Shown: in pieces, positions 43,358-64,000 of the stretch
Layout of the letters: each line of letters starts with the position of its first letter
Numbering within the stretch: position 1 is the stretch's first letter
Source: Nitrospinaceae bacterium
GTDB taxonomy: Bacteria > Nitrospinota > Nitrospinia > Nitrospinales > Nitrospinaceae
Direction: 5' to 3'
Assembly (NCBI GenBank): GCA_965223665.1
Contig: OZ245011.1
Span: 864,001-928,000, forward strand
Length of the DNA: 64,000 nucleotides
Made by a program: the position numbers and the translations under genes
The notes under the pieces: model-generated
The model's input: the letters and a program-made list of their open reading frames with translations, nothing else
Database searches by the model: none
What the model was told of the DNA's origin: nothing

Positions 43358-46907
<3,550 letters not shown>

Positions 46908-47199
46908 GAGGGAATCTCTCAGATCTTTTAATCAATAAAAACAGCGAATTAAAATTTATCCTTTGGGAAAAATTTGATTTCGATAACTGTCTGGGTAGCA
47001 TTTTAAATGTTTGTAGAATCAATATTGGTGATCTAAGGTTGGCCAACTTTTCCAATATTAATCTCCTAGCCAACTTAAGTCAAGGTGTACTCACAAGGAT
47101 GAAACCATTAAATTTTTTTAAATTTGAGTGTATTAATTTTTTGGTGTTTTATAAAAGTCTTAAAAGATTGACTTTAATGCATTGTGTTAGAATCCTAAC

Positions 47200-49428
47200 A
47201 TGAAAACTCGTTGGTTAAATGCTTTCACAGTATCTATTGCGATTTCCCTCAGCTTAATTTTTGTATATTCCCTCGATCTTACATTTATTAAACTTCTAGA
47301 ACTTAAAGCATACGATTTTAAAATGTCCTTGAGAGGAAAACGACCTGTATCCGACAAAATAGTAATTGTCGCAATTGATGAGCATAGCTTACAACAAGAG
47401 GGACGGTGGCCCTGGCCGCGTACCCGTCTTGCAAATCTAGTTAACAAATTAACTAAATTTGATGCGACAGTAATCGGGTTAGATATCCTATTTCCAGAAA
47501 AAGACATTTACATTCCACTAGACGAAGTGATACGCGAGATAAAAAAAAAAGATCTCACAAAAATTAGTCGTAGCGAAGCTGTAAGTTGGTTAAAGCAAAT
47601 AAGTAATTCGGATGGCAAATTTGCTGAAGCAATTCTTCAGTCGAACCGTTTGGTAATGGGTTATTTTATTTATTCAACAGCCCAACAGGCAAAAAAATCA
47701 GCTAGAATGATGGGACCAAGAGAATTGGAGCTACTAGATTCTTCACAATATTCCATAGTCAATTTCAACAATAATTCTCAGGTTTTTGATTTTCTTCATC
47801 CTATTTTTGCTGTAGGTCTCAACATTCCATCTTTGATGAAAGTTGCCAAAAGAGCTGGTAGTCTTCACTTTATGCCAGATCGAGACGGAATTCTAAGGTT
47901 TATTCCCATGGTCCAGGCATACAAAAATGTTTTATTTCCCCCGTTCAGTTTACAAATTTTAAAAGAAGCTACTAATTGGAATACCACCATCGATATTTTT
48001 TCTGACCACGTTGCAGAAATCCAATTGGGAGATATACCCATTCCAGTTACAGAGAAGGGAGATTTTCTCATCAATTATTACGGACCGAGTCAAACCTTTA
48101 CTTACATATCCGCCTCCGACGTAATAAATGAAAGGGTGGATCCAACAACATTAAAGAATAAAATAGTACTCGTTGGCGCCACCGCAACTGCTCTCCCGGA
48201 CCTTCACAGCACTCCTTTCGACCCCTTGTATCCTGGGGTTGAGGTGCATGCAACCGTTATGGAAAATATTCTAAACCAAGATTTTTTGCAACGTCCACCT
48301 TGGATTCGTCTCTTGACCTTAATAATGGTTTTAATTACCGGGGTGCTTCTAGGTTGGGCTTCTCTTCATTTTAAAGCTTTTGGCACATCCATAATTTTAC
48401 TTTTTGGAATTGGGGGATATTTAGTTACAGACTACGTGCTTTTTACTCAGAAGGGGCTGTGGGTTTATACCGTGTATCCTGTGTTCTCTCAATTTCTTAT
48501 ATTTTCAGGAGTTACCCTATATCGATTCATTTTTGAAGAACGTGAAAAGCGTTTTATTAAAGGTGCATTCAGCCATTATTTAGCACCAACGGTGGTCAAC
48601 CAACTGGTGGAAAACCCAAAACTCCTTAAATTAGGCGGAGAACGTAAAGTGCTCACAGCTTTTTTTTCTGATGTGGCTGGGTTTTCTTCAATTTCAGAAA
48701 AAATGGAAGCAGAAGAATTGGTAGATTTGCTAAATGTTTATTTAACGGACATGACAGAAATAATTTTGAAATATGAAGGTACGGTAGACAAGTATGAAGG
48801 TGATGCAATCATTGCTTTTTTTGGAGCTCCTATTGCTTTTGAAGATCATGCCACCCGAACCTGTTTAGCAGCCATGGATATGCAAAAAAGACTGGCTGAG
48901 TTGCGGGATATTTGGAAAAAAGAAGGTCTTCCCGAAATGTTTATGCGTATCGGTATCAATACAGGGCCAATGGTGGTGGGTAATATGGGATCAATTAACC
49001 GTATGGATTACACTATGATGGGAGATTCAGTAAATTTAGCGGCACGGTTGGAAGGCGTCAACAAACAATATAAAACATATACAATGATCAGCGAGTATAC
49101 TTACGAGTTAGCAAAAAACAATATAGAAACCCGTGAATTGGATTCCATTCGAGTTGTAGGAAGACAGGAACCACTAAAAATCTATGAAGTATTGGGTAAA
49201 AAAGGTGAAATAAATGATTTTATACATCCCATTTTGCCTTACTTTAAAGAAGGCTTGAATCATTATAAAAATTTAAGGTGGGAAAGAGCTATCGAATCTT
49301 TCCAAACAGCATTAAACCTTTATGAAAACGATGGACCTTCAATGACTTATTACGAAAGGTGCATTACCTTCCAAAAACATCCCCCACCCTCTGACTGGGA
49401 TGGAGTATTTGATATGCCATCCAAATAA
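47200..49428 (+). CDS. CHASE2-domain class III adenylate/guanylate cyclase
   Basis: IVAIDE.S...G.WPWPR, D.DG..R, PGVE.HA CHASE2 motifs; 3 TM; FSDV.GF, DKY.GD, GD.VNLAARLE catalytic motifs. Confidence 0.93.
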   Translation: MKTRWLNAFTVSIAISLSLIFVYSLDLTFIKLLELKAYDFKMSLRGKRPVSDKIVIVAIDEHSLQQEGRWPWPRTRLANLVNKLTKFDATVIGLDILFPEKDIYIPLDEVIREIKKKDLTKISRSEAVSWLKQISNSDGKFAEAILQSNRLVMGYFIYSTAQQAKKSARMMGPRELELLDSSQYSIVNFNNNSQVFDFLHPIFAVGLNIPSLMKVAKRAGSLHFMPDRDGILRFIPMVQAYKNVLFPPFSLQILKEATNWNTTIDIFSDHVAEIQLGDIPIPVTEKGDFLINYYGPSQTFTYISASDVINERVDPTTLKNKIVLVGATATALPDLHSTPFDPLYPGVEVHATVMENILNQDFLQRPPWIRLLTLIMVLITGVLLGWASLHFKAFGTSIILLFGIGGYLVTDYVLFTQKGLWVYTVYPVFSQFLIFSGVTLYRFIFEEREKRFIKGAFSHYLAPTVVNQLVENPKLLKLGGERKVLTAFFSDVAGFSSISEKMEAEELVDLLNVYLTDMTEIILKYEGTVDKYEGDAIIAFFGAPIAFEDHATRTCLAAMDMQKRLAELRDIWKKEGLPEMFMRIGINTGPMVVGNMGSINRMDYTMMGDSVNLAARLEGVNKQYKTYTMISEYTYELAKNNIETRELDSIRVVGRQEPLKIYEVLGKKGEINDFIHPILPYFKEGLNHYKNLRWERAIESFQTALNLYENDGPSMTYYERCITFQKHPPPSDWDGVFDMPSK

Positions 49429-49501
49429 TTGAGAAGATTATTAGTAAATAGAAATTTTACGAAATAAAAACAAATTGAAAAAAGAAAGAATCAGGACAAT
49501 T

Positions 49502-50152
49502 CTAGCTCAAAATTCCTTGCTTATATGCATAACGAATTAATTGTGCGTTACTACTCAAGTTCATTTTTTTAAGTATCCGGGTTCTATAAGTACTAATGGT
49601 GGAAGCACTGAGTGAAAGTTCAACAGAAATATCATTTACAGATTTACCCAGAGCAATAAGACGAAATACCTCAAATTCCCTGGAAGAAAGGTTTTTATGA
49701 GGCGGTTTTCCATTGAATACTATTTCATTAATTGCAATCACATTGGCAAGATTAGGACTGATATATTTTTCTCCTTGAACCACTTGCCGTATGGCTTCAA
49801 CAATTAATTCCATAGAGCTTACTTTCTCCAAATAACCTGATGCACCTTCCTGAAAACACAATTTCGCACTGTCTTCTTCAGGAGAAGCACTAAATACGAT
49901 AATTGGAAGGTTCGGATATTCAATTTTTAACTGACGCATAACGTCCCAACCATTTTTTTCTGGCATATCTAAATCCAGGAGAACTATATCCAATTCCAAC
50001 ATTCGAGTTTGTTCTAATAACTCTATTCCATTTTTCACTTTCTTTACCACGGTCATATCCGAAATTTGGGACAGTATTTGCGCCAATCCTTCCCTAACGA
50101 CTTCATGGTCGTCAGCAATAATTATTCGGATTTTTTCCTTTTGGGCTACCAT
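49502..50152 (-). CDS. NarL/FixJ family response regulator (REC + LuxR HTH)
   Basis: IADDH, LD..MP, LS.RE.EV, STYR.RI..K. Confidence 0.92.
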   Translation of the reverse strand: MVAQKEKIRIIIADDHEVVREGLAQILSQISDMTVVKKVKNGIELLEQTRMLELDIVLLDLDMPEKNGWDVMRQLKIEYPNLPIIVFSASPEEDSAKLCFQEGASGYLEKVSSMELIVEAIRQVVQGEKYISPNLANVIAINEIVFNGKPPHKNLSSREFEVFRLIALGKSVNDISVELSLSASTISTYRTRILKKMNLSSNAQLIRYAYKQGILS

Positions 50153-50709
50153 AAAAACTTCAAAAAAAACGAAAGATTTTCTTTTTTCTTATCGTTAAAT
50201 GTTTAAGAATGTGTTCCGATCAAATTCTCCATAATCCCGTTATTATAGAAAAAGGTACCATAATTCGCATGACTTGCAACGAAATAACGCCTTATTTGAC
50301 TTATTTTAGACGGTTAATAAATAATTGAAATTAACATCTCAATCCCAAAATATTCACCACTATAAAACTATTTCAAAGAAGCCTGAATTCTATAAATCAC
50401 AACCATAATCCCAAAAATTATTTAAAATTTTTTAATTCCTTTCTGAGCAAATACAACAGTAGTTAATTCCATGTCGCTATTTCAACGACAAAATTTTCAC
50501 AACTCCTGTGACAAGACAAAACATTTTTTATTGATTATATTTAGACCTAGAATCTTCAATAAATTTTTTAATTGAAGAAAAAGATTAGTAGGTAGTTTGA
50601 GTTTTAGGACGGGTTATCCAAACCTGGCAAATCAAACAAGCCTTGGTTTGAACGAAATTAAATTCCTTAAGACAAACTACCGTCAGCTTTGACATAGGAG
50701 GGATTAAAA

Positions 50710-52496
50710 ATGTTATTAGAAACTATAAATCTAGCAAACCATCGCAGGGATCAAAAGTTTTCTATAGCACTCCTTTTGAAAACGCAAAGGAAGAATTTAA
50801 TAAACCTTTGGACACTATAAATGCAATGGAACTATTACAAGAATCAAAAGTATCCTATCAGACACTTCTTGATAATTCTTTCGATGCCATTATTTCAATT
50901 GATGCTGAAGGGCTAATCAAGGTATGGAATCATCGTGCAGAATCAATGTTTGGTTGGAAAGCAGAAGAAGTTATTGGTAAAGCTCTCACCCAAACGATCA
51001 TTCCACCTTCTTTTCATGAAGCGCATACTAAAGGCTTAAAAAACTTTTTAGCAAAAAATGAAAGTCGAGTTCTAAATCAAAAGTTGGAATTAACAGCAAT
51101 TCACCGAAAAGGAAATGAGTTTCCAATCGAAATATTCATTTGGGCAACTTACATAAGAAACAAAGTTTCTTTTACGGCCCTTATAAAAGACATAACTGAA
51201 AATAAAAACTTTCAGAAGGAAATGCGTCTTAAAAATGCAGAATATAAAGTACTGCACCAGGTGGCTCAAGTTCTTCAAAATTCAAAATCAATGGAAGAAA
51301 TGTTACACCATGCAATGGAAGTAATCAGCCAAAGCAAGGAACTACATGTAGAAAACAAAGCCGGAGTTTTTCTTGTGGATGAGGAAAAAAATGTACTGCG
51401 ACTCGCTTCTACCTTAGGAAATTTTCCAAAGGGTTTTCTGGAAAACCAGGCCGAGATTCCTTTTTACAATGTTCCCTATGGACGTTGCTATAGTACTGGA
51501 GAGATCCAAATCAAAGATTATTGCCAATTTAAACCTCATCGATTAGGTCCATTTGGAAATTTAGCCAATTATGGTACTTACATTATCCCCCTTAAAAGCA
51601 AAGCTAAAGTTGTGGGTATATTGTTTCTTTATACTCCAGAAACACCACCTTGTTATGAAGGTAGTACTGAAATTTTGATGTCAATCGGTTCCCTTATGGG
51701 CAATGCGATTCAACAAAGGAAATATGAAAAGAAAATTCATGAACAAAATAAAAAATTAAACAAACTCAATGAATTAAAAAACAAATTTCTTGGAATTGCT
51801 TAACACGATCTTCGAAGTCCCCTATTCGTAATTTTATCTTATAGCCGTATTCTTGCCGATGGATCCAAAGGCCAAATTAATGACCAGCAACTTTCTTTAA
51901 TTCAAAAAATAATAAATTCTGGTGAATATATGTGTGATTTATTGGGAAACTTATTGGACGTTTCAAAAATTGAAAGTGGCCAATATTTTTTAAATAAATC
52001 CGCACACAATATAAATGCTCTTGCATTTGAGGAAGTTGAAAAATTTCAACATGTCGCAAAAGAAAAAAATATTGAACTTCATTTTGAGAAAATGGATTCA
52101 CCCAACTTGATGGTGGACGTATGCTCCATAATCCAGGTAATGGATAATTTCATTGGAAATGCCATTAAATTTTCTCCTAAAAATACAAAAGTCTTCATCA
52201 AAACAGAAAATTTGAAAAGCTGGTTTCGATTCTCTGTGAAAGATCAGGGACCTGGAATTTCAGAAGAAAATAAAAAATTAGCTTTTAAAGAATTCCAAAC
52301 TTTAGGAAATAAACCCACTGGTGGGGAGAAATCGACCGGCCTGGGATTGGCTATTTCCAGGAAAATAATTCAACTGCATGAAGGCCAAGTTGGAATTATT
52401 TCCGAGATTGGAAAAGGGAGTACTTTTTACTTTGACCTACCAATCCTTAGAAAGGTCAACACGGAAGACGGTCAAACATTGATTAAAAATGACTAG
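50710..52496 (+). pseudogene. PAS-GAF-HisKA-HATPase sensor kinase interrupted by an in-frame TAA (51801-51803) and an apparent frameshift at the start
   Basis: Reads FLGIA*HDLRSPL and continues in frame into ORF 51930..52496 (NAIKF, DQGPGI, GLGL). The RBS-preceded ATG at 50710 is out of frame with the kinase frame. Confidence 0.8.
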
Positions 52497-52636
52497 TTTT
52501 TATTTAATTGTAGAAAGGTATCAACCTTTCAAAAATAGAATTTTTAAACTCTCAAAATAGAGAGAAGTCGATTTGAAAGATAGTATTACAATCTTACAAA
52601 AAGGCTAATTCACAACCCAAATGAAGGAGAATAAAA

Positions 52637-53059
52637 ATGTCAATTTTAGAAAACATTTCAGGAACCCATGGAAAAATTTTAATTGTAGATGATGACACAG
52701 AAATTAGAGATATCGTCAAATCGCAACTAATTGAAGGAGGTTATCAGGTACTGGAAGCCAAAGATGGAGAAGAGGCGATTAACCTTATGAAACAGGGATC
52801 AAATTTGCTCCGAGTGGGTTTGATTATCTGTGACATTCGTATGCCAAAAGTAAATGGTATCGAGGCTATTGATTATATAAAAGAAAATGCACCGTCTATT
52901 CCTATCATGGTGCTTACCGGATATCCAGATACTTATTTGGCATTATCCTTATTGAAAAAAGGAATTAAAGAATATGAGATTAAACCGGTTGAAAAAGATC
53001 GATTACTTGAAAAGGTACGAACTCTACTTGCTGCTAAACAAGATTTTAATTATGTCTAG
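52637..53059 (+). CDS. Single-domain response regulator
   Basis: ILIVDDD, CDIRMP, LTG, KP; AAGGAG RBS. Confidence 0.9.
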   Translation: MSILENISGTHGKILIVDDDTEIRDIVKSQLIEGGYQVLEAKDGEEAINLMKQGSNLLRVGLIICDIRMPKVNGIEAIDYIKENAPSIPIMVLTGYPDTYLALSLLKKGIKEYEIKPVEKDRLLEKVRTLLAAKQDFNYV

Positions 53060-53068
53060 TTTAAAAAT

Positions 53069-53110
53069 TCTCCCCCTTTTCTATAAGTTTCAACATAAAA
53101 AAGGGGGAGA
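53069..53110. terminator. 12-bp perfect inverted repeat after the response regulator (terminator-like)
   Basis: TCTCCCCCTTTT ... AAAAGGGGGAGA; no U-tract on the + strand. Confidence 0.5.
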
Positions 53111-53296
53111 CCAGAAAAAAATAATTTTGTAATTAAATAAATTATCTTTCTTAAAAATTTTTACTACATAATTCTGTATCGCAAAGAGAATTGCAATAAA
53201 TATTTCTTATGATCTAGCTCAAGTGACCGAGGAACATATCGAAAGAAGGATAATAAAATAATTTTTTATAAATGGTTTTATAAACACAGCGGACCA

Positions 53297-53519
53297 GAGC
53301 AAATGTTTACTAGTTTTTTACAAGCATGGTTAAAGAGAACTTCCAAAATACCCCAATTAGGCGTTGGAAAATTTTTCACCTTTGCCGAAAAAAATATGCT
53401 ATTGTTGGCAAAGATTTTCCAGTGGAAGCAAAATATGCGCCGCAAGAATGTTTTGCTCCAAAGTTTAATTGTTTTACCAGGAAACTACTATGCAGTAAAA
53501 AAACTCGAGGCGTTTGCTC
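53297..53519 (+). ncRNA. Putative structured RNA or 5' leader (long stem with a three-way junction)
   Basis: Nested complementary segments found by hand, with several G-U pairs that work on the + strand only; not matched to a known family. Confidence 0.45.
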
Positions 53520-53559
53520 ACTGATTTTGCAAAAACCGCCTTATCTGGGAGGGTGGGTG

Positions 53560-56500
53560 ATGAGAAACTACAGCGGACACCTAATTCATTTTCAAATATT
53601 CTTATACCTGACAATCTTTGGATTTTATCCTCATGTTTCATTTGCTGCGAAATGCGAAAAGCCTATTGCCAAAATTGTATCGGCACAAGGAAGCGTAGAG
53701 GTACAACACGTTGGAAATGCAGATTGGAAACCAGTTGTATTAAATGAAACTTTTTGCCCGGGAGATAAGCTTCGTACAGATCCAAAAAGTCGTGCTGAAA
53801 TTGCGCTGGATAAATCTATTCTTCGCCTGAACGCCAATACCCTCCTTACCCTTAAAAATGTAAAGGAAAATAATACTGCCCTGATCGATTTACTTAAAGG
53901 AATCGCTTATTTTTTCAGTCTTGCCCCCAAAAGCCTCGAAGTCACAACTCCCTTTGCCATAGCTGCAGTCCGAGGCACAGAATTTCTGATAACTGTTACC
54001 CTCCAAAAAACTTTAATCACGATTTATGCCGGTAAAGTGTTTGCTTCCAATTCTAATGGATCCCTCATTTTGAAAAATGGGCAATCTGCTATCGCTGAAA
54101 GTGGTCAAGCTCCTGTTTTGCAGGTAAGACTGCGTCCACAAGACGCCGTTGCCTGGACTTTGTATTATCCACCAGTTATTAATATTCAAACTGAAGGTTA
54201 TCCGGAAGCAATCCGGCAATCGATTCAATATTATCAAAAGGGAAATATTAAAGGAGCATTTGACAGTATTGAAAACGCACCTGAGTTTCAGGATCCCAAG
54301 CTTTTAAACTATTTGGCGTCTCTAGAACTATCTGTCGGCCAGGTAGAAGCCGCCAACAAATACATTCAGAAAACCTTAAGCATTGACCCTAAAAATAGCG
54401 AAGGGTTGGCACTGCAATCAATCATTGCTTTGACTCAAAATAATAAAGAAGAAGCTTTAAGCAAAGCCAAACAGGCTGTTCAAGCCAACTCCCAATCTGC
54501 AACGGCGCAGATCGCTTTATCATATGCCCATCAGGCCAGGTTTGATATGAATAGCGCTCTGGCCAGTGGTCTAAAAGCCGTTGAACTGGAACCGCAAAAT
54601 GCACTGGCCTGGGCACGCCTTGCAGAACTCTGGTCGGCCAAGGGCTATCAAAAGAAAGCTCTGGAAGCAGCCCAAAAAGCGGTTTCGCTAAACCCAAACC
54701 TGGCAAGAACGCAAACGGTTCTTGGATTTGCTCATCTTACAAATGAAGATACCTCCAGTGCTCGCACCGCTTTCCAAAAAGCCATCGAACTGGATCAGGC
54801 AGACCCTCTTCCCAAATTGGGTCAAGGCATGGCTAAAATTCGAGACGGTGAACTGGAGGAAGGACGAAAAAATATTGAAGAAGCGGTCAACCTGGATCCA
54901 AACAATTCCCTGATGCGCAGCTATCTGGGAAAAGCATACTACGATGAAAAACGCAGTGTCAAAGCATTAGAGCAGTTCAGTATTGCTAAAAAGCAGGATC
55001 CCAAAGACCCAACTCCCCTTTTCTACAGCGCTATTGAAAAGCAAACCACCAACCGACCGGTGGAAGCATTGCACGATTTGCAAAAAGCAATCGATTTGAA
55101 CAATAATCGAGCACCGTTCCGGTCCCAGTTGTTAATGGACAAGGATCTCGCTTCTCGTAGTTCTGCCGTAGGGCGCATTTATACCGATCTAAATTTCCAG
55201 AATCGGGCCTTATTAGAGGGTTGGTTATCACTCGCTACAGACCCTACTAATTTTTCTGCCCATCGTCTTTTAGCAGACTCATACTCTATTTTACCGCGAC
55301 ATGAAATTGCCCGAGTCAGCGAACTGCTTCAGTCACAACTTTTGCAACTTGTTAACATGACCCCCATACAACCGCGCCTGGGGGAAAGTAATTTATTACT
55401 CATCAGTTCTGGTGGTCCGGGGGCCTTGTCCTTTAACGAGCTCAATCCCCTGTTCCAAAGCAATGGTATCACTTTCCAGGGAAATGGGATTGCCGGGGAA
55501 AACGATACCTACTCTGGCGAAGGCATCATTTCGGGAATTTTTGGAAAAGCTTCCTTCAGTGTAGGATACAGCAAATTTGATACCAACGGTTGGCGCCCAA
55601 ATGCAGACCAGGAAGATGACATTGTCAACGTTTTTACACAATTTCAGATTTCTCACCTTACAAGCGTACAATTTGAATACAGGTTCCGCGAGACTGTACA
55701 AGGAGATATTGTACAAAGGTTTTTTTCCTCAGACTTTCAGGCAACCTTAAGGAATAAAGATACAACAAATACAGCTCGCTTGGGTTTTCATCATGTATTC
55801 ATGCCTGGATTGGATGTTATTGGTAATTTTTCTTATCAAAATATGGATCGAGAATTGAAAGATCCATTTTTTTCAGTTGAACTCATGGGCAAAGATAAAT
55901 CTCTCGGTGGTGAGCTCCAAATGCTATTCAGGTCGAAATATATTAATATGGTGACCGGTGGAGGGTTCTTCTACATAAATATCAAAGAAACTTTTACCTT
56001 TACCCCCTTTCCACCCGAAATTTCGGATTTTACTCAGAAACATTCCAATTTTTATTTATATTCCTATATTAAAATATTAAAGAATTTAACCCTCACTATT
56101 GGAGGTAGCGGTGATTTCTTTAACACGGACAATCCCATGGCAAAGGATAAAAACCAATTTAATCCTAAGATTGGGGTCGTTTGGGAACCGCTCAAAGGAA
56201 CTACTATTCGTGGCGCCTGGTTTAGAGTCCTAAAGAGAACTTTGGTAGCTCAACAAACCATTGAACCGACTCAGATCGCCGGATTCAACCAGTTTTTTGA
56301 TGAACTTAATGGAACTGACTATTGGGTACGCGGAGTTGGTATTGATCAAAAATTCACTAAAAGTTTTTACGGTGGAATACAATTCACTGAGAAAGATTTG
56401 GATGTTCCTATTCTGTTTAGTTTCCCTCCAGCCCTGCCACAGCTAAATATTTTCTCCTGGGAAGAAAAACAAGCTCGCGCTTATTTATTTTGGACGCCGC

Positions 56501-56904
56501 ATCAATGGGTATCTCTATCTGCAGAATGGATTTGGGAACGCCTGGACAGGGAATCACTACTCAATTTAAATGTCCGAGCTTTAGAAACCCATTATTTTCC
56601 AATGAAGGTTAATTTTTTCCACCCTTGCGGGTTAAGCCTTTCCATCAAAGAAACCTATGTGAATCAAAAAGGCACTTTTAATCGATTGACTGCACTACCG
56701 GGAGTCCTTACCCCTGGAAAAGATAGTTTTTGGTTAACTGATATCGCCATCAAATATCGTTTTCCAAAGCGATATGGATTTCTGACCGCGGGGGCCACTA
56801 ATTTGTTTGACGAAAGCTTTCAGCACTTTGACCCGGATTTAAATAACACACGTATACAACCAGTCCGGGCTTTTTTTATTTCAGTGACACTAACAATTCC
56901 ATAA
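53560..56904 (+). CDS. FecR-like + TPR + C-terminal beta-barrel outer-membrane protein (NsrA-like / TonB-receptor-like)
   Basis: Start moved to MRNYS (53560, after GGGAGG). GD.LRT...SRA and V.TP.A.A.VRGTEF FecR motifs, many A..L.P TPR units, barrel-type C-terminus (NLFD..., alternating FFISVTLTI). Confidence 0.85.
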   Translation: MRNYSGHLIHFQIFLYLTIFGFYPHVSFAAKCEKPIAKIVSAQGSVEVQHVGNADWKPVVLNETFCPGDKLRTDPKSRAEIALDKSILRLNANTLLTLKNVKENNTALIDLLKGIAYFFSLAPKSLEVTTPFAIAAVRGTEFLITVTLQKTLITIYAGKVFASNSNGSLILKNGQSAIAESGQAPVLQVRLRPQDAVAWTLYYPPVINIQTEGYPEAIRQSIQYYQKGNIKGAFDSIENAPEFQDPKLLNYLASLELSVGQVEAANKYIQKTLSIDPKNSEGLALQSIIALTQNNKEEALSKAKQAVQANSQSATAQIALSYAHQARFDMNSALASGLKAVELEPQNALAWARLAELWSAKGYQKKALEAAQKAVSLNPNLARTQTVLGFAHLTNEDTSSARTAFQKAIELDQADPLPKLGQGMAKIRDGELEEGRKNIEEAVNLDPNNSLMRSYLGKAYYDEKRSVKALEQFSIAKKQDPKDPTPLFYSAIEKQTTNRPVEALHDLQKAIDLNNNRAPFRSQLLMDKDLASRSSAVGRIYTDLNFQNRALLEGWLSLATDPTNFSAHRLLADSYSILPRHEIARVSELLQSQLLQLVNMTPIQPRLGESNLLLISSGGPGALSFNELNPLFQSNGITFQGNGIAGENDTYSGEGIISGIFGKASFSVGYSKFDTNGWRPNADQEDDIVNVFTQFQISHLTSVQFEYRFRETVQGDIVQRFFSSDFQATLRNKDTTNTARLGFHHVFMPGLDVIGNFSYQNMDRELKDPFFSVELMGKDKSLGGELQMLFRSKYINMVTGGGFFYINIKETFTFTPFPPEISDFTQKHSNFYLYSYIKILKNLTLTIGGSGDFFNTDNPMAKDKNQFNPKIGVVWEPLKGTTIRGAWFRVLKRTLVAQQTIEPTQIAGFNQFFDELNGTDYWVRGVGIDQKFTKSFYGGIQFTEKDLDVPILFSFPPALPQLNIFSWEEKQARAYLFWTPHQWVSLSAEWIWERLDRESLLNLNVRALETHYFPMKVNFFHPCGLSLSIKETYVNQKGTFNRLTALPGVLTPGKDSFWLTDIAIKYRFPKRYGFLTAGATNLFDESFQHFDPDLNNTRIQPVRAFFISVTLTIP

Positions 56905-56965
56905 AAACTTGAATTGTTAGAATCTGGAAAGATTATAATCGAAACCATTCTGAGGAGGGCTAAAT

Positions 56966-57601
56966 ATGCTTAACAAATCAAAGGAAAAAGTACCTAAGTT
57001 AATAATTAAGTTAATTTTAATGATTTATTTTACCATTTCATTTTCCGCTTGCACAAAGACAATACCAAACTATGAGCATCCTATTCCTGATACCACTCGA
57101 ATACCCACTCGAATAAATAAAACTATTGAATTCAAAGGAAAAGGAGAAAAAGAAAGTAAAGTAATATGCACCCAAGTAGATCCAAAAACTCAATGTGAGA
57201 TACAAGTCCCCTGCCAAACAGGAGAAAAAGTAGAAACGAAAACTCTCGCAGAAGTTTTAGGCGTGGACAAAGCAATAGTTGATATTGAAAATCATGCTTG
57301 TGCAACATTTAGCCTGGATCTAGGTCACCAAAAAAATCCTTATTATTGTTCCGGAGGTTTTTGTAGGTGGTCACCATCTGACAGAAGATTAAAGAACAAT
57401 ATCCATAAAATTGGGCAATTGAAAAATGGTCTCAATATCTATAAATTTAAATATATTTGGGATGATGCCTGGAGGGTGGGAGTAATGGCAGATGAGGTAC
57501 GTAAAGTTTTACCCGAAGCCGTGATTACCATCAATGGATACGATCTCGTGGATTATTCAAAAATCAAAATTGACTATTCTGCAATTACAGATGATCAATA
57601 A
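56966..57601 (+). CDS. Cys-rich putative lipoprotein with a C-terminal Peptidase_S74-like (intramolecular chaperone) domain
   Basis: FSAC lipobox-like site at C29, 6 further Cys, then SDRRLK.NI..IG...G..IY.F.Y...G.MA.EV....PEAV....GY..VDY. Confidence 0.8.
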   Translation: MLNKSKEKVPKLIIKLILMIYFTISFSACTKTIPNYEHPIPDTTRIPTRINKTIEFKGKGEKESKVICTQVDPKTQCEIQVPCQTGEKVETKTLAEVLGVDKAIVDIENHACATFSLDLGHQKNPYYCSGGFCRWSPSDRRLKNNIHKIGQLKNGLNIYKFKYIWDDAWRVGVMADEVRKVLPEAVITINGYDLVDYSKIKIDYSAITDDQ

Positions 57602-57626
57602 AATGCAAATTTCATAATTCTGTATT

Positions 57627-57654
57627 AAGGCAGGGTCTTTTTGGACCCTGCCTT
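57627..57654 (+). terminator. Intrinsic terminator hairpin (near-identical to 60440..60467)
   Basis: AAGGCAGGGTC-TTTTTG-GACCCTGCCTT. Confidence 0.75.
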
Positions 57655-57956
57655 CTTCATTTATGAACATTTGGATAAATAATTTACCTGTATTTTTTTT
57701 AGAATATGGAATGAACCTTCATCATCAACTTCCTAGAAATATTTACCAATCCATTTGCCTCTTTTAATAATTTTCTTAAATTTTTTTCTGCATTTAAATC
57801 AGCAATGATGTTTTAATAACTTGTCTCCTTGTTCAGGATCTAGGAAAAAGTGAATTTAGCAAATCAGGATTAAAATAGTGTAACTATTGATAATGTATTG
57901 AGATGTTTTTGAACAAGAAATTTTTATCGAATCAAACCAAATGAGGAGGGATAAAT

Positions 57957-58451
57957 ATGCTTTACAAATCTAGAGCACCCATCACCATCATAATGATTAA
58001 AACTTTTGCACTTGTTTATTTTATTATTTACTTTTCTGGAATTGCAAATTCCAATGAGATTCAGCAGGGTCTGGACACCACCCGAATACCTACCAAAATT
58101 AAAAAAACAATAAAATTTTTTGATAACAAAGAAAAAGCAAGAACAATGGAAAGTTTTGGAAATGAAAGAATAGCTAGCACATCAGAAAATTCTGACGCCA
58201 CCCCGGATACCAGCAAAACAGTGTGCACGGAAGTGGATCCAAAGACTCAATGTGAAATTGCAATACCTTGTGGATCGGAAGAAGAATTAGAAAAATTTTC
58301 GCTGGCGGAAATCTTGGGAATGGGAAAGGCTAATATCATCATTCCTGGTCAAACTTGTGCAACCTTTATTCTTGATATTGATCACCCCAAAACTCCCTGG
58401 TATTGTTCAGGAGGAATTTGCACTTTGTATGGTTCAGGCAATTCTGGATGA
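57957..58451 (+). CDS. Secreted Cys-rich protein, paralog of 56966..57601 without the S74 domain
   Basis: DTTRIPT.I.KTI.F, CT.VDPKTQCEI..PC, LAE.LG, CATF.LD, YCSGG.C all shared. Confidence 0.85.
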   Translation: MLYKSRAPITIIMIKTFALVYFIIYFSGIANSNEIQQGLDTTRIPTKIKKTIKFFDNKEKARTMESFGNERIASTSENSDATPDTSKTVCTEVDPKTQCEIAIPCGSEEELEKFSLAEILGMGKANIIIPGQTCATFILDIDHPKTPWYCSGGICTLYGSGNSG

Positions 58452-58503
58452 AGAACTTGATATCTCTAAAATTGGAAAGTATTAAGATTTTGAATAAAAT
58501 ATA

Positions 58504-58536
58504 AAGAAGGCCGGGTAATTTTTTCTCGGCCGTCTT
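58504..58536 (+). terminator. Terminator-like hairpin related to 57627 and 60440
   Basis: AAGAAGGCCGGG ... CTCGGCCGTCTT. Confidence 0.55.
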
Positions 58537-59143
58537 GGCTTTGAGAAATATATTAGAGGATTATACCGTTTTTCATGCCTCTTTAATTCTTACCAAATGT
58601 GACATTCCAATTTTTCCTAAGGAAAAAAAATTCTCTACATTCTCATTTTCAGAGTTTCTTGCCAAAGATTTTCTTGTCCCAAATTTTATTCTCCCTTCTA
58701 AACTCCACCCTTCCCCAAAATTCATTCTTTATTTTCTGACCAAAGGACAACTGACAATTGCTTACCTTTGTCGTAGAACCCCTAAAACACAAAAAACTAC
58801 ATTTTTTGGTTGTATTTTACCAGGTTTATAGTATATTCCGTTTAACTAAATTTTTGGTTTATTAAACTTCTAACCTTTGGTGTTTTATACATGAAAACTA
58901 ATTAAAGCCTTAAGTTTAACCAAAACGAGAAGAGCCCGCCAGAATCAATTGGCTCCTTATTATTACTAAACCAAATAATTTTGGATTATAAAAATTTTGT
59001 CTTCAACGATTTTACCCGTTTTCTTGAAAAACCTCCAAGGGCAAAACCATACGCTCTTAACCAACTAAATCTATTTTTTTATAGGCCTAGTTGAATATAT
59101 ATAAAAAAGCGTTTTATTCAAAACCATTATAGGAGGGCTTAAT

Positions 59144-59638
59144 ATGCTTATCAGGCAAAAAACATATTTCTTAATTGGCTTATGGTTTTTGATGTTGTTT
59201 GTACTTTACGCTACACCCCAAATAGTATTAGCAAAAGAAAAAGGTCAAAAGGAAGAATCTACAAAAAATTTAACTGGCCCATCAGCCAACCGTACTTGCT
59301 TAAACTTGGGAAGAGCCTCTATTTTGGTTTCATTTACAGATGGTTGTCCGAGAGATCCCAAAAAAGTTAAATTTTTCACAGAAACCCAATGCCAAGGAAA
59401 AAGAAAAAATCCGGATATTTTATCAAAGGCTGTGACCGTGTACAGCTCAGGAATCGACACAGGAGGGGTTCTCGAATGTAGGTGGAATGCAAAAGTTTGG
59501 AAAGTCAATCCATACTGGTATGTCTATTCTGCGGGAGGTAATGTAGCTTGCACCTGTTACGATTTCACCAATCCGCTTCCATATACATGCGACCCGGAGG
59601 ATTTAAATAATCCTCCTGCTAATTGTTCAGGAAATTAA
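59144..59638 (+). CDS. Secreted Cys-rich protein (8 Cys)
   Basis: Signal peptide ending VLA, AGGAGG RBS, C-terminal NPYWYVYSAGGNVACTCYDFT...YTC.PE.L.NPP..CS. Confidence 0.82.
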   Translation: MLIRQKTYFLIGLWFLMLFVLYATPQIVLAKEKGQKEESTKNLTGPSANRTCLNLGRASILVSFTDGCPRDPKKVKFFTETQCQGKRKNPDILSKAVTVYSSGIDTGGVLECRWNAKVWKVNPYWYVYSAGGNVACTCYDFTNPLPYTCDPEDLNNPPANCSGN

Positions 59639-59797
59639 TTAAGTCATGTTTAATTAACATTTAAATATGCAATAGTGATCGAGCCAACAGGTTAGACACA
59701 GTTGCTTCTGGTTCTTCCAGAGTAAAAAGATAATTAATAAACAAGATCTCTTTAAATCTTGCTTGAACAAATTTCCAATGAAGAAAAGGAACGTAAA

Positions 59798-60286
59798 ATG
59801 AATAACAAATATATAAAACCAGCTAAACCATTATTTGTCCAATTAGGCATTATAATCCTCTCAGCCTTGGTATTCCTTGGATCTGATAATGGATCTAATT
59901 TGATTGTTTCCAATACCTGCATTAATTTGGATAGCAATGCATCTGTTTGTATTACTAGAAACGATGATGGAACCCCATCAACTGTAGACTGGTTTCCAAG
60001 AACGGGATGCCCACGTTCACTGGCATGTCCTTCTCTTGATTCTTCTACTGAAAAGAGCAATCTTGCCTTGGGAGATTCCTCGGATATTTTTACTTCCAAA
60101 GAGGAGGGCGAAATTTGCACCGATGGGCACTCTAATGAGTGTCTTGATAAAGAGATATTTAACCCCACCTGGTATCAATATACTGCTGGGGGTAATGCAT
60201 ATTGCAAATGTTATGACTTTACTGCTGCTCCTCCCTATACATGCACACCGGAGCAATTAGCAAATCCTCCCTCTTGGTGTTCATAA
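59798..60286 (+). CDS. Secreted Cys-rich protein (10 Cys), paralog of 59144..59638
   Basis: Start moved to MNNKY (59798, after AAGGA). TC.NL, GCPR and the C-terminal ~40 aa are shared with 59144. Confidence 0.8.
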   Translation: MNNKYIKPAKPLFVQLGIIILSALVFLGSDNGSNLIVSNTCINLDSNASVCITRNDDGTPSTVDWFPRTGCPRSLACPSLDSSTEKSNLALGDSSDIFTSKEEGEICTDGHSNECLDKEIFNPTWYQYTAGGNAYCKCYDFTAAPPYTCTPEQLANPPSWCS

Positions 60287-60291
60287 TAATT

Positions 60292-60393
60292 ATAGGGGTT
60301 ATGGCAGATGAGGTTAAGAAAGTTAAACCGGAAGCCGTAATTACCATCAATGGATATGATCTCGTGGATTATTCGAAAATCCCATTGAACTAA
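60292..60393 (+). pseudogene. Detached C-terminal fragment of an S74-like domain
   Basis: IGVMADEVKKVKPEAVITINGYDLVDYSKIPLN*; 60301-60381 matches 57485-57565 at 71/81 nt and 25/27 aa by hand count. Confidence 0.85.
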
Positions 60394-60439
60394 TCTACTG
60401 GTAAAAATAATCCATTGTTTTTTACTTTTTCTAGTTATA

Positions 60440-60470
60440 AAGGCAGGGTCTTTTTCGGCCCTGCCTTTTT
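60440..60470. terminator. Intrinsic terminator hairpin between convergent genes
   Basis: AAGGCAGGGTC-TTTTTC-GGCCCTGCCTT followed by a T-run. Confidence 0.8.
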
Positions 60471-60489
60471 CAAAATTTTTTTGATGAAA

Positions 60490-62880
60490 TTAATTACTTC
60501 GTGGAATGGTAAAGAAAAAGGTGCTCCCCTTCCCTATTTCTGACTTGAACCCGATTTTCCCTTTGTGTCCTTCCTCAATAATTTCCTTGCAGGACATCAG
60601 GCCAAATCCATCACCGTCAGGTTGAGAGGTAAAGTTTTCATTAAACAAAAGTCTTTTGATTTCTTCCGGAATTCCCGTTCCTTTATCCTCAATACGGACC
60701 TCAATAAATTCCTCTAAACCTTCAACAGAAACACAAATTTCAGAATTCTTTTGGGAGGCATAACCTGCGTTGAGTATCATGTTCTGTAGAACTCTTTTAA
60801 TGTCCAATGTGTTTACCGGTCCAATAGAATTAGAATCATTTTCAAGAAGTGTTACTTTTTTATTTTTAATGTCATCATGAAAGCCAATTTCTTCTTTTAC
60901 TTCCTTAACTAAATCAAAAATATCTATTTCTTTTTTTGGATATTCTCGAGTTCCCTTTTGGACACAAGCCAGGCTTTGGTCAATCATTGAAACCATGTTA
61001 TTTTTTACGGAAATCATAACCTCAAGACCTTTTTTGAGTTTATCAAGGCCCTTACGCATATTATGCTGCTCATTGGAACCGGTTAGTTTTTCCAGAGTAT
61101 TTTGAAAATGCATCTTGGAAAACTCCAGAGGCACTAAACAGTTTTTCATGTCGTGAGTAAAGTGACTCAGTTGTTGAACATCATTGGACATTGTATCCAG
61201 GTCATTTCTTAAACGGCGTGAACATACTTTCATCATTTCCAGCAGGGCTTTGGAATTGGACACAATGTATTTGGCAAATAAATCTTTATCGATTTCAATT
61301 ATTAGACCATCGGTTAATGCCACTGCAGAAGCTGACCGAGGCAAATTGTCAATCAAGGAAATTTCTCCAAAATATTCTCCCGGGTTTAGATCCGTAATAA
61401 CTTTTTGGTAGTTTGGCCCCTTACTAATTCTGACTTTTCCACGAAGAAGAATATGAAGATATTGTTCATCCCTGGCCCCTTCCTTTATCAAAACATCCCG
61501 CGCCTTAAGAACCACATCCCTGCTTTCTTTTGCAAGATTTACTTTTGCCTCCAGTGGGAGACAGTCAAAAAGATCAATCTGCTTTAAAAGTTCTAACTTC
61601 CTCGTTATAGCATTATCGTCTGTAATATTGGTTTGTGATAATTGACCGGACTCTTTTTTAGGTTCGGTTCTTATAGATTTGGGCAGGGTGAAACAAAACT
61701 TTGTACCCTTCCCCCAATGAGATTCAAATCCAATTTTTCCATTATGGTATTTTTCAATAATCTCCTTACAGGATATTAAACCTATTCCGTTTCCATCCGG
61801 CTTAGAGGAAAAACTTTCCTTTAAAATAAAGGGTTTAATATCATCCGGAATACCAGAGCCGTTGTCCTCAATACTGATTTCAATTGCATGGTTCATATTT
61901 TTTACAATACAGACTATTTGATCTTTTTTCTGGGTTGCATAACCTGCATTGATGATCAGGTTTTGCAAAACTCTTTTAATATCCAAATAGTTGATTTTCC
62001 CAATGACTTTGGATTCCGGAGATTCCACCCTGAGTGTTTTGTGTTCAAGTTGCTTATGACAGGAAATTTCTTTTACCGTTTCTTTGGCTAAGGCCAATAT
62101 GTCAAAACTATCTTTGACGTATTCTCCCTGCTGTTTTTTAACGCAGGCCAGACTCTGATCGATTAATGTGGTCACATAATCCCGAACTTCTATAATTGTA
62201 TCCACTCCCATTTTCAACTTTTTAAAACCATCCCGCCTTATATGACCTTCTTCAGTCCCATTCATTATTTGCAAAACTTTTTGAAGATAGCTTTCTGAGT
62301 TTTTTAAGGGTAAAAGAACGTTGCGCATGTCATGTGTAAAACAACTCATTTTACGCATGTCTGATTCCATACGGGCTAAGTCATTTCGAATTCTTTGAGC
62401 AAAAACTTTCATCATCGCCACCAAGGCCTTTGAGTTGGAGGCAATATACTTTTGAAAAATTGTCTCATTGATTTCCAGCAATAAGGTATTTTTCATAGAC
62501 TTTACTGAAGCCGAACGGGAATTCGAATCTACTAAAGGCAATTCGCCTACATAATCGCCAGTACTTAAATAGGAAATAATTTTTTTTGATTTAAAAACCA
62601 CCACACGGCCAGTGAGGATAATATACATGGATTTCTGCTGCTCACCTTCCCATTCGAAGAGGATTTCCTCCTCACCCAGGCGCCAAAGGGGACTTTCCTC
62701 TATAATCCTCAGCAAGGTCTCTTTGTTAAAACAATTGAAAAGCTCAATTTTCATCAATTCTTCCAATTCCATTTCTTGAAGTTTCTTTTGCAGTCCCATT
62801 TGTCCAGGATTTGGCGAAACTTTTTTATAAGAATGGATATCAGATACCTGAGTCTTTTTTTCTGGAGAAAAGTTTTTCAT
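60490..62880 (-). CDS. Tandem (cNMP-binding + histidine kinase)x2 soluble protein
   Basis: Two GE.....RSAS cNMP motifs, two H-boxes (THDMRN, THDMKN), two N/G1/G2 box sets (NL/MI.NA, ED.G.GIP, G.GL). Confidence 0.88.
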   Translation of the reverse strand: MKNFSPEKKTQVSDIHSYKKVSPNPGQMGLQKKLQEMELEELMKIELFNCFNKETLLRIIEESPLWRLGEEEILFEWEGEQQKSMYIILTGRVVVFKSKKIISYLSTGDYVGELPLVDSNSRSASVKSMKNTLLLEINETIFQKYIASNSKALVAMMKVFAQRIRNDLARMESDMRKMSCFTHDMRNVLLPLKNSESYLQKVLQIMNGTEEGHIRRDGFKKLKMGVDTIIEVRDYVTTLIDQSLACVKKQQGEYVKDSFDILALAKETVKEISCHKQLEHKTLRVESPESKVIGKINYLDIKRVLQNLIINAGYATQKKDQIVCIVKNMNHAIEISIEDNGSGIPDDIKPFILKESFSSKPDGNGIGLISCKEIIEKYHNGKIGFESHWGKGTKFCFTLPKSIRTEPKKESGQLSQTNITDDNAITRKLELLKQIDLFDCLPLEAKVNLAKESRDVVLKARDVLIKEGARDEQYLHILLRGKVRISKGPNYQKVITDLNPGEYFGEISLIDNLPRSASAVALTDGLIIEIDKDLFAKYIVSNSKALLEMMKVCSRRLRNDLDTMSNDVQQLSHFTHDMKNCLVPLEFSKMHFQNTLEKLTGSNEQHNMRKGLDKLKKGLEVMISVKNNMVSMIDQSLACVQKGTREYPKKEIDIFDLVKEVKEEIGFHDDIKNKKVTLLENDSNSIGPVNTLDIKRVLQNMILNAGYASQKNSEICVSVEGLEEFIEVRIEDKGTGIPEEIKRLLFNENFTSQPDGDGFGLMSCKEIIEEGHKGKIGFKSEIGKGSTFFFTIPRSN

Positions 62881-63387
62881 TTTCTTATTTGAAATGTATT
62901 CAAAGTTCTAAATCAATCCAATTAGATTCCATATTTCAGATTTGTCAAGATATATCTGGCACAGCATAAAATTATGGCCCGTCTTGACTGGATTCCCCCT
63001 CAGCCAGTTATTCAGTCCCAAAGTAAATGAAAAGCAATTTTAGGCGCTATAATAATGGCTCTTAATGGAATTCCAATATGAAACATTAATTTATAAAGGG
63101 TCCATTCCCAGCCCTAAAAGAAAAATAACTACAAAAGGCTAATTAATCCAATCTTTTAGAGGGATCAATAGAAAAATCGGGAAAAATAATATACTTAATA
63201 TATAAATAAACAAATAGGGTGTGGTTGGGGGATGTCAAACCAATTGAAATAAAAGGGTCCCAAATCCGTAAGTGGGGAGAATAAATTTTCCCGGGGGCAT
63301 CAAAAATAAGCTTTTAAAAAGTTTATAAAACAAATCATTAACCTGTATTTACTCTTATCACATATTCTTAAAAAAATTGTCTTCCAT

Positions 63388-63777
63388 TTAATATTTGCAG
63401 AATATGTCAGGATAAAATACATATACATAATACTCCCCTCTCAATACAGACCCGGACACGTAGGTACGATAACCTTGATGAAGATAATATTTAGATACTT
63501 GGTATGCACGATTTTGCGTTACAAAAGGCCCAAAAACTCTTTTGCATACACCCTGAACTGAAAGAAATGAGGAAGAGGTATCGTAAAAATATCTTTCTCC
63601 TTCATCGCTTCTCACTCTTTCAGTTAATGTATGAGACCTCTTCCCTGAAAGTTTTTGAATGGCATGTTGCTCTTCACCATATACCAGTGGATTCCAAAGG
63701 AATATCAAACTCCCAAAAACCAGCGTATACAATAAAACTAATAAAATATAAATGGATAAATTTGTTTTGGTATTCAT
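63388..63777 (-). CDS. Hypothetical exported/membrane-anchored protein
   Basis: GGAGGG RBS, N-terminal hydrophobic helix, two Cys. Confidence 0.65.
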   Translation of the reverse strand: MNTKTNLSIYILLVLLYTLVFGSLIFLWNPLVYGEEQHAIQKLSGKRSHTLTERVRSDEGERYFYDTSSSFLSVQGVCKRVFGPFVTQNRAYQVSKYYLHQGYRTYVSGSVLRGEYYVYVFYPDIFCKY

Positions 63778-64000
63778 GACGCCCCTCCGATTGAAAAACT
63801 ATAAATTTTGGCAGTTCTTGATCTCATCTTATTCACTCAATTTTCAAATCATCTTTAATAATCGATCTCAATGATTAATATGGTTCATTTGAGAGAATCC
63901 AGATATCGTTGAAAATATCCTTTTTTTATAGAATTCAAATGGAGACGATGTCATACATTAAATGACTGTTTTGCTTACATCCAAATGATGAGAAACGAGG

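Follow-up and report, generated by a model that had tools for sequence, protein, structure and literature searches.

The question raised by the locus described here is what an NsrA-type outer-membrane barrel listens to, and how the cyclic AMP (cAMP) made behind it is read in a genome with no detectable Crp. For CHASE2 domains and NsrA-type barrels the sole worked example joins a foreign protein as input to a Crp output. The locus belongs to a Nitrospinaceae bacterium (G000; genome of 4.35 Mb, 98.6% complete) and lies in a stretch of 64,000 nucleotides (G000:C1:864001-928000, hereafter the window, in whose numbering positions are given). It encodes a CHASE2 adenylate cyclase, a FecR-TPR-barrel protein, four secreted-looking cysteine-rich proteins (c1-c4), a double kinase with cyclic-nucleotide-binding (cNMP) domains and two response regulators, all of them where an initial annotation had placed them; a PAS-GAF kinase gene and an S74 domain on c1 had been missed. 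As a tentative answer it is proposed that exchangeable, cell-bound partner proteins dock on the barrel, that the barrel acts through FecR on CHASE2, and that cAMP gates the twin kinase.

Three steps make up this proposal. On balance, the cysteine-rich proteins would be exported and attach to the plug-less barrel, on it or inside it, via a terminal, disulfide-closed aromatic hairpin; as cell-bound heads or plugs they would be exchangeable, with variable bodies that define what the system senses. Quite probably, by analogy with NsrA and CyaK, a change in the barrel would then pass through the periplasmic TPR and FecR domains to CHASE2 and switch cAMP synthesis. It appears fairly likely that cAMP would bind both cNMP domains of the double kinase and shift its kinase/phosphatase balance towards the single-domain receiver, possibly also towards the NarL regulator, in a cell without Crp. 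As to its history, a horizontally spread pair of barrel and partner would have been joined to a phylum-native cyclase and tandem kinase pair, which elsewhere serve FecR/two-partner-secretion operons. At the sequence level the parts, their intact active-site motifs and their joint travel are established.

A cassette at three genome sites

The genes occupy an island whose neighbours are kdsB and a sugar-transferase gene (46909..64000; a further 84 bases of it lie outside the window). In the same-genus genome G001 these two flanking genes are adjacent, an empty site that gives the island its size of ~17.2 kb, and the junction sequences carry an imperfect 18-base direct repeat (15/18 matching). 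No integrase was seen on the island, and its GC content is 36.3%, compared with 35.9 and 36.8% in the flanks; the block looks mobile or portable. Within a collection of 120 genomes of the phylum, G000 included (labelled G000-G106 etc.), the complete gene set recurs in 2 of the 119 others, G009 and G015. The barrel gene is present in these three genomes alone, and a 61-genome search returned the same three. The copies in G009 and G015 have surroundings other than those in G000, and the cassette occupies three different genome sites. Within an overall range of 54-78%, identity of the island genes to their counterparts is 73-75% for the cyclase, 63-65% for the barrel, 66-67% for the double kinase and 65-66% for the single-domain receiver, and for the NarL regulator 75% (G009) and 54% (G015). 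The only varying part is the slot 3' of the barrel, where G015 has a single small gene, G009 two and G000 four. The block from cyclase to receiver is inverted in G000, so that cyclase and barrel, adjacent divergent neighbours in G009 and G015, stand 4.1 kb apart.

The barrel gene (53560..56904, plus strand) encodes a protein of 1114 amino acids, assigned as an NsrA-like outer-membrane protein by profile, structure model and tblastn. A signal sequence is followed by a FecR domain (32-200), TPR (215-520), a conserved helical segment (520-632) and a 22-strand barrel (636-1113). The AlphaFold2 model (mean predicted local distance difference test, pLDDT, 70.6; predicted template-modelling score, pTM, 0.47) contains the FecR beta domain, a TPR solenoid and 22 strands preceded by helices, whose shape is unsure where the pLDDT falls below 50 (572-634). 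Its best Foldseek matches are 22-strand TonB-dependent receptors, at 9-16% identity. A classical TonB-dependent transporter or FecIRA system was rejected, as helices stand where the plug is expected, and neither plug nor extracytoplasmic-function sigma factor families were found among the 14 window proteins scanned. Conservation is highest in the helical segment (521-600; 0.88-0.89) and in a loop (881-920; 0.82), and the former may close the barrel lumen. The kinship with NsrA of Sinorhizobium meliloti claimed in the initial annotation is borne out by a family-profile alignment over 968 columns (probability 99.8%, E 8.5e-30), and tblastn against plasmids matched S. meliloti nsrA over residues 2-514 (24%).

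Barrel loci across phyla were surveyed from the best 80 of each of two scans (at least 581 and at least 519 confirmed), that is 160 loci including near-duplicates, of which 52 have at least 4 kb on both sides and 106 at least 1.5 kb downstream. A CHASE2 protein is encoded in 44 and a CHASE2 cyclase in 41 of the 52 well-flanked loci, and a small partner open reading frame (ORF) follows the barrel in 86/106 loci, versus 43/456 control genes of the same loci. Among the partner loci, the co-directional small ORF is secreted-looking and cysteine-rich in 62 and has a Cys/aromatic tail in 61. The co-occurrence expected from the initial annotation stood for cyclase and small gene and only in part for the cNMP kinase, as detailed below. 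With at least 3498 proteins in the barrel family at E 1e-10 (8000 scored) and a small secreted partner gene at most sampled loci, the usual input of these receptors is suggested to be home-made. At seven loci (L054, L058, L113, L137, L145, L150 and L188) the CHASE2 gene that follows the barrel encodes no cyclase domain recognised by the profile, and in four of them a small HATPase-type gene follows, an arrangement which suggests another type of output.

The island cyclase (47200..49428, plus strand; 742 amino acids), identified by family match and alignment, consists of CHASE2, three membrane helices and a class III adenylate cyclase domain, and is 29-31% identical to CyaK of S. meliloti, in keeping with the kinship already claimed. 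Its catalytic residues Asp491/Asp535, Asn612/Arg616 and Lys531/Asp603 are intact; we take the first pair to bind metal and the last to select adenine. By alignment, the canonical Lys/Asp pair kept by the island cyclase occurs in only 1 of 80 barrel-linked cyclases. In the other 79 (loci L049-L207) the commonest residues at the three compared positions are Asp/Glu/Arg (17) and Asn/Glu/Arg (13), and the product of cyclases of this make-up may not be cAMP. In a quick tree of 55 rows, with genome-collection loci entered only at 690 amino acids or more, the island cyclase nests with those of its host lineage (99-100% support in the Shimodaira-Hasegawa-like approximate likelihood ratio test), apart from barrel-linked cyclases of other phyla. 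CHASE2 proteins are found in 19 of the 20 other genomes of the family.

Closest to it in that tree is a second CHASE2 adenylate cyclase of G000 (57% identical; L035:5398-12736, G000:C1 ~3885400-3892700), the last gene of an operon in the order TpsB-like barrel, FecR protein, filamentous-haemagglutinin-type TpsA, cyclase. A cysteine stands close to the C-terminus in both the FecR protein and TpsA of this operon, and likewise in the relatives of both in G038, G070 and G071. No paper linking CHASE2 to two-partner secretion was found in the literature search.

The partner slot behind the barrel

Four plus-strand genes follow the barrel, c1 at 56966..57601, c2 at 57957..58451, c3 at 59144..59638 and c4 at 59798..60286. 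Their products have hydrophobic, signal-like N-termini and 7, 6, 8 and 10 cysteines, respectively. c1 is a secreted beta protein ending in a disulfide hairpin to which the S74 domain is appended, c2 is its paralogue without S74 (42% identical), c3 is a member of a second barrel-linked family assigned by blastp cluster and profile, and c4 is the paralogue of c3 (30%). The four had been described as paralogues, which is shown within the two pairs and not between them, where blastp finds nothing and profile comparison gives probabilities of 0.2% and 0.4% with only the terminal hairpin aligned. By the lipobox criterion, c1 (Cys29) and the second partner in G009 are possible lipoproteins.

By blastp, each pair is linked to a cluster (of 11 and 17 members) whose genes follow barrels in other phyla, and both families share a C-terminal aromatic hairpin closed by cysteines with a glycine turn. 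In a second broad partner class, of 27 members, it is the mature N-terminus that bears the hairpin. The c1/c2 and c3/c4 families are confined to the barrel slot, and their profiles matched nothing in the 120 phylum genomes beyond the three barrel loci, where the matches were themselves profile rows. The model of the c1 core (pLDDT 77, pTM 0.60) is mostly beta with a two-strand hairpin at its end; fold searches gave a best Z of 2.6 and no Foldseek match at E 0.001, the ESM Atlas held no usable matches for c2 or c3, and Pfam and NCBIfam name nothing in the small proteins apart from S74. A profile search of 1.84 billion proteins returned mostly S74 matches and few core homologues, because three profile rows carried S74. 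Prediction of a complex between the c1 core and the barrel with TPR (212-1114) scored 0.00 twice, which counts neither for nor against docking. Around basal barrels (L088, L095, L097, L105, L169, L179, L187 and others) the partner is an ORF of 60-120 amino acids, often without a signal-like N-terminus, which keeps the C-terminal Cys/aromatic hairpin.

How partners and barrels were inherited was traced on a FastTree tree of 80 barrels with sequence clusters as partner labels, a coarse test. The broad partner class changes 6 times, versus at least 29 in 500 shuffles, with related barrels sharing labels. The subtypes of the C-terminal-hairpin class (K1-K3, on 26 barrels) change 11 times, versus a shuffled mean of 11.8, and 183 of 500 shuffles reached 11 or fewer. 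The c1/c2 and c3/c4 families are intermixed on the tree, barrels 63-65% identical carry partners of different families, and the G000 barrel precedes both. Barrel and partner were therefore co-inherited while partner bodies were freely exchanged, a pattern which a shared docking element with variable heads would fit better than allele-specific kin recognition.

The initial annotation had seen in the small proteins diversified ligands for kin or self recognition, which is weakly supported, given the random subtypes and the lack of one-to-one pairing of ligand and receptor. The wider alternative, in which the partners are diffusible, strain-specific ligands (autocrine, kin or self) feeding the same cAMP-kinase chain, we consider unlikely. 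It would accommodate the signal-like N-termini and disulfide-type cysteine counts, a slot that is hypervariable among neighbours 63-78% identical, and the protein signal sensed by NsrA (PMC7529298), with S74 release as a conceivable maturation step. A lock-and-key pair would not be expected to give one barrel facing four proteins of two families, nor a subtype random on the barrel tree, and some partners are lipoprotein-like while some short ones in other phyla have no signal-like N-terminus.

A third possibility, likewise improbable, makes the barrel mainly an exporter of the Slam or TpsB kind and the small proteins its cargo (adhesins or effectors), with FecR/CHASE2 monitoring export or surface contact as in the TpsB-FecR-TpsA-cyclase operon. 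That operon does couple a FecR/CHASE2 module with a two-partner secretion pair, the barrel model has no TonB-type plug, export could be signalled by the terminal hairpin that the partners share, and trimeric fibres destined for export are the usual clients of S74 chaperone domains (PMC8326128). Yet the fold is nearest to 22-strand TonB-type receptors rather than to Omp85 or Slam pores, NsrA is a receptor without a cargo gene, and the lumen may be shut off by the conserved helices. Overall, the small proteins are as likely to be cell-bound partners or barrel cargo as diffusible signals.

The S74 domain of c1 (Peptidase_S74, E 1.9e-10) is the sole one above threshold in G000. Ser138 and Lys143 (Ser-x4-Lys) stand at its start with the spacing of S587/K592 in MYRF, and it is short, ending 74 residues after the serine, with relatives ending sooner. 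MYRF is cut before a serine that precedes the lysine by five residues; cleavage depends on trimer formation, which a C-terminal coiled coil drives (PMC8326128). Three database homologues have near-identical S74 tails on cores 39-45% (one 27%) identical to that of c1, and the tail starts within a few residues of the end of S74-free homologues. Self-cleavage of c1 before Ser138 is plausible and would leave it with a C-terminus resembling those that family members have naturally; the same junction would result if a mobile domain had simply been fused to the end of the gene. A terminator-like hairpin after c1 (57627..57654, plus strand) has a duplicate at 60440-60467, within a remnant behind c4 (60295..60472, plus strand) that retains the 3' half of the S74 coding region and the terminator (75% over 183 nucleotides). 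This decayed copy indicates that the array grew by duplication of a partner-S74-terminator unit.

The twin kinase and the proposed cAMP output

The double kinase (60490..62880, minus strand) is a soluble protein of 796 amino acids with two cNMP-binding/histidine kinase modules 45% identical to each other. In both, the phosphate-binding cassette (for which we take Gly-Glu ... Arg-Ser-Ala as the consensus), the H-box and the ATP-binding boxes are intact. It appears to be a fusion of a tandem gene pair that stands unfused in G014, G038, G070 and G071. The cNMP-kinase module is found in 46/120 genomes, in fused double form only in the three cassettes and as a single module in 43 genomes without the barrel. 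In all three cassettes the double kinase sits at the same end. No best match among solved structures spanned both the cNMP and ATPase parts (58 sequences).

The other places where the module occurs were inspected with flanks of ~6 kb (41 places; G014, G026, G075, G080 and G102 were left out). A single module lies directly behind a CHASE2 cyclase in one of them (G106), and in three (G038, G070 and G071) a TpsB-FecR-TpsA operon starts just downstream of a tandem pair whose modules are 46-53% identical to those of the island. The double or tandem form thus stands beside FecR modules of two kinds in 6 of 7 genomes, the seventh being on a 3.3-kb contig, which ties the twin form repeatedly to FecR modules, whereas the single form is mostly unlinked. 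A join of the G038 kinase/TpsB contig to a CHASE2 cyclase contig is not claimed, since the large ORF resembles TpsA only weakly and at its C-terminal part (score 74, versus a best of 72 in 500 shuffles), and the cyclases checked in G070 and G071 lie in another context than the kinase/TpsB operon. In many genomes of the order the genes around the single-module kinase of ~370 amino acids (L218-L250) look conserved, and several copies of the kinase are broken by stops. To our knowledge, cNMP-kinase architectures are common in domain databases and mostly unstudied.

Two regulators and a further kinase could complete the output. The likeliest first phospho-acceptor is the single-domain response regulator (52637..53059, plus strand; 140 amino acids, by family match); in G019 a similar receiver follows a single-module cNMP kinase. 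The NarL/LuxR-type response regulator (49502..50152, minus strand; 216 amino acids, by family match) is a possible transcriptional output. The PAS-GAF histidine kinase (50710..52496, plus strand) is a single intact ORF in G009 and G015 and has in the window an in-frame stop (51801-51803) just before the H-box. Sequencing contigs from four runs of one sample, possibly the source of the assembly, were compared (X1, X2 and X3): that of X1 has a sense codon and those of X2 and X3 a stop, so both alleles exist in the sample. An extra T near 50729 in three runs leaves 50710 and 50808 as alternative starts of the gene. Pairs of PAS-GAF kinase and receiver recur elsewhere in G000.

That no Crp-type gene lies in the window had been noted before, and the finding extends to the whole of G000, in which Crp-type helix-turn-helix (HTH) families PF13545 and PF00325 gave 0 matches (controls matched 14/14 and 9/14). 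G009 likewise gave none, and G015 had no match above the cut-off; among the 21 genomes of the family one has a borderline match, compared with 28/120 genomes in the phylum. G000 encodes 8 cNMP proteins including the double kinase, none with an HTH by these searches. One, of 799 amino acids (G000:C1:272772-275171), combines a metallo-beta-lactamase-like motif with two cNMP domains and is a candidate cNMP-regulated hydrolase, and another, stand-alone one lies inside a pilus-type gene cluster (C1:2899934). No cAMP-binding histidine kinase was found in titles and abstracts by the literature search. The available part of one review names only c-di-GMP-gated histidine kinases and gives CRP as the main cAMP reader (PMC11139211).

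In the survey a cNMP protein is encoded in 25 of the 52 well-flanked loci, which makes a co-encoded reader a usual slot. The 45 cNMP proteins have at least nine architectures: Crp (10), glutaminase (9), sigma-54 ATPase-like (6), BTAD, MscS and GAF (2 each), SulP, SpoIIE and protein kinase (1 each), and no family match (11). By gene content the reader slot is real and freely filled. Glutaminase-cNMP fusions stand beside the barrel module at L050, L081, L086, L093, L094, L144, L156, L175 and L197, and five of the six loci with sigma-54 ATPase-like/cNMP proteins have a 4Fe-4S family match.

The link from cAMP to the kinase, as initially proposed, is kept in part: the kinase is present in three of three cassettes and is lineage-specific, with single-module relatives mostly lacking a cyclase nearby. 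That only the core of barrel, partner and cyclase is a system, with the double kinase, the PAS-GAF kinase and both regulators as island passengers and cAMP read by other cNMP proteins or the kinase answering another ligand, is quite unlikely: the unlinked single-module kinases in 43 barrel-less genomes, the PAS-GAF kinase and receiver pairs elsewhere, the decay of the PAS-GAF gene in part of the population and the seven other cNMP proteins would suit it, but both cNMP cassettes are intact, the twin form keeps company with FecR modules, and the kinase holds its cassette end at three genome sites.

Several observations weigh against cell-bound partners acting through cAMP on the twin kinase. The three cassette copies share one ancestral unit and are not three independent observations. 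At 37 of the 41 kinase places there is neither cyclase nor FecR within ~6 kb; no cyclase was near the kinase at any of 40 places in the largest batch, and none was seen on the contigs of the tandem pairs in G038, G070 and G071. A cNMP kinase with HATPase occurs in only 1 of the 52 well-flanked loci (L048, whose gene set is that of G009 and which was counted once). The seven other cNMP proteins and the second CHASE2 cyclase of G000 are other possible readers and another source of cAMP. The criteria for partner genes were fixed after the sequences had been read, and the loci include near-duplicates, so the P value of the partner count should not be read at face value. Homologues of c1 exist both with and without S74, and its S74 appears to lack the long C-terminal coiled coil of MYRF (PMC8326128). 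In S. meliloti NsrA senses a foreign protein (PMC7529298) and works without a small gene: cyaK follows nsrA directly, and none is encoded between these two genes or after them. In its complete form, a self-contained pathway without Crp in which self-made disulfide proteins, one of them autocleaved, bind the barrel and cAMP is read by the twin kinase, the proposal is doubtful.

On the island, a single portable piece of 17 kb, the receptor and its partners stand together with a canonical adenylate cyclase and a kinase that is a candidate reader of cAMP. If docking of partners and gating of the twin kinase were true, there would be an endogenous partner for NsrA-type barrels, a defined input upstream of CHASE2, and in bacteria a two-component system gated by cAMP. 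Such a kinase would explain gene regulation by cAMP in a CHASE2-rich lineage nearly without Crp HTH domains. What is unusual is the proposed Crp-free, kinase-read output on a single island; the core of barrel, cyclase and partner is widespread.

Island setting and known relatives

The gene order is real and no assembly artefact, as a single X1 contig covers the whole stretch with 3 differing letters and 1 gap. Run contigs differ from the window at 50729, 50864, 51802, 51980, 62469 and 62579, four of these being in or just 5' of the PAS-GAF kinase gene; some may be assembly errors and others strain variants. An ORF of 129 amino acids with a hydrophobic N-terminal stretch (63388..63777, minus strand), absent from the G009 and G015 cassettes, is a probable island passenger. 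Scans for promoters and terminators stayed at shuffle level (54 vs 54.5 and 15 vs 14.4). Outside the island, upstream of pyrG, a protein with two Tll0287-like haem-binding domains is encoded at 43358-44464.

The combination of parts had been put forward as undescribed. The pairing of barrel and cyclase is known from NsrA and CyaK, and a partner protein or kinase output of the barrel/CHASE2 module was not found in a literature search that covered mostly papers outside subscription. Small (lipo)proteins inside a barrel lumen have precedents in RcsF, which is disulfide-rich and signals inwards, and in LptE within LptD. The c1 core matched neither in sequence or fold, so that the likeness is one of analogy. 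The S74/ICA chaperone of phage tailspikes and MYRF likewise has Ser and Lys five apart at the start of the domain (PMC8326128); the c1 form differs in being short, apparently without a long coiled coil, and appended to a secreted domain of 100 residues.

Among signalling systems, the c-di-GMP-controlled kinases ShkA and CckA resemble the predicted action of the island kinase in that kinase activity, soluble or cytoplasmic, is under the control of a nucleotide messenger (PMC11139211), whereas the island protein carries a CRP/PKA-type cNMP domain N-terminal to each module, so that nucleotide and fold differ. In a Burkholderia operon a LysM-FecR protein and a CHASE2 histidine kinase form a FecR-CHASE2 periplasmic relay into a phosphorelay (PMC5192318); there CHASE2 and kinase are parts of one protein, whereas the island is proposed to interpose a cAMP step. 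A Campylobacterota cluster of CHASE2 cyclase, phosphodiesterase, FecR and TPR genes also keeps its components together under horizontal transfer (bioRxiv 2022.03.11.484041), with split genes and a phosphodiesterase in place of the fused barrel, cysteine-rich array and kinase. No phosphodiesterase was seen on the island, and no search aimed at cAMP phosphodiesterases was made.

The nearest relative is the S. meliloti system (with CyaD1/D2 and Clr), in which a protein signal is sensed only if NsrA and CyaK are present, and Clr provides the output (PMC7529298; PMC13001267; PMC5498481). There, too, a full-length homologous FecR-TPR-barrel protein is encoded with a CHASE2 adenylate cyclase. Unlike it, the island, whose barrel is ~24-25% identical, adds cysteine-rich partners, the double cNMP kinase and regulators, in a genome without Crp/Clr and a free-living host with no known plant signal. 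By its barrel and cyclase the locus belongs to the NsrA/CyaK kind, from which it differs in the Crp output and in its co-encoded partners.

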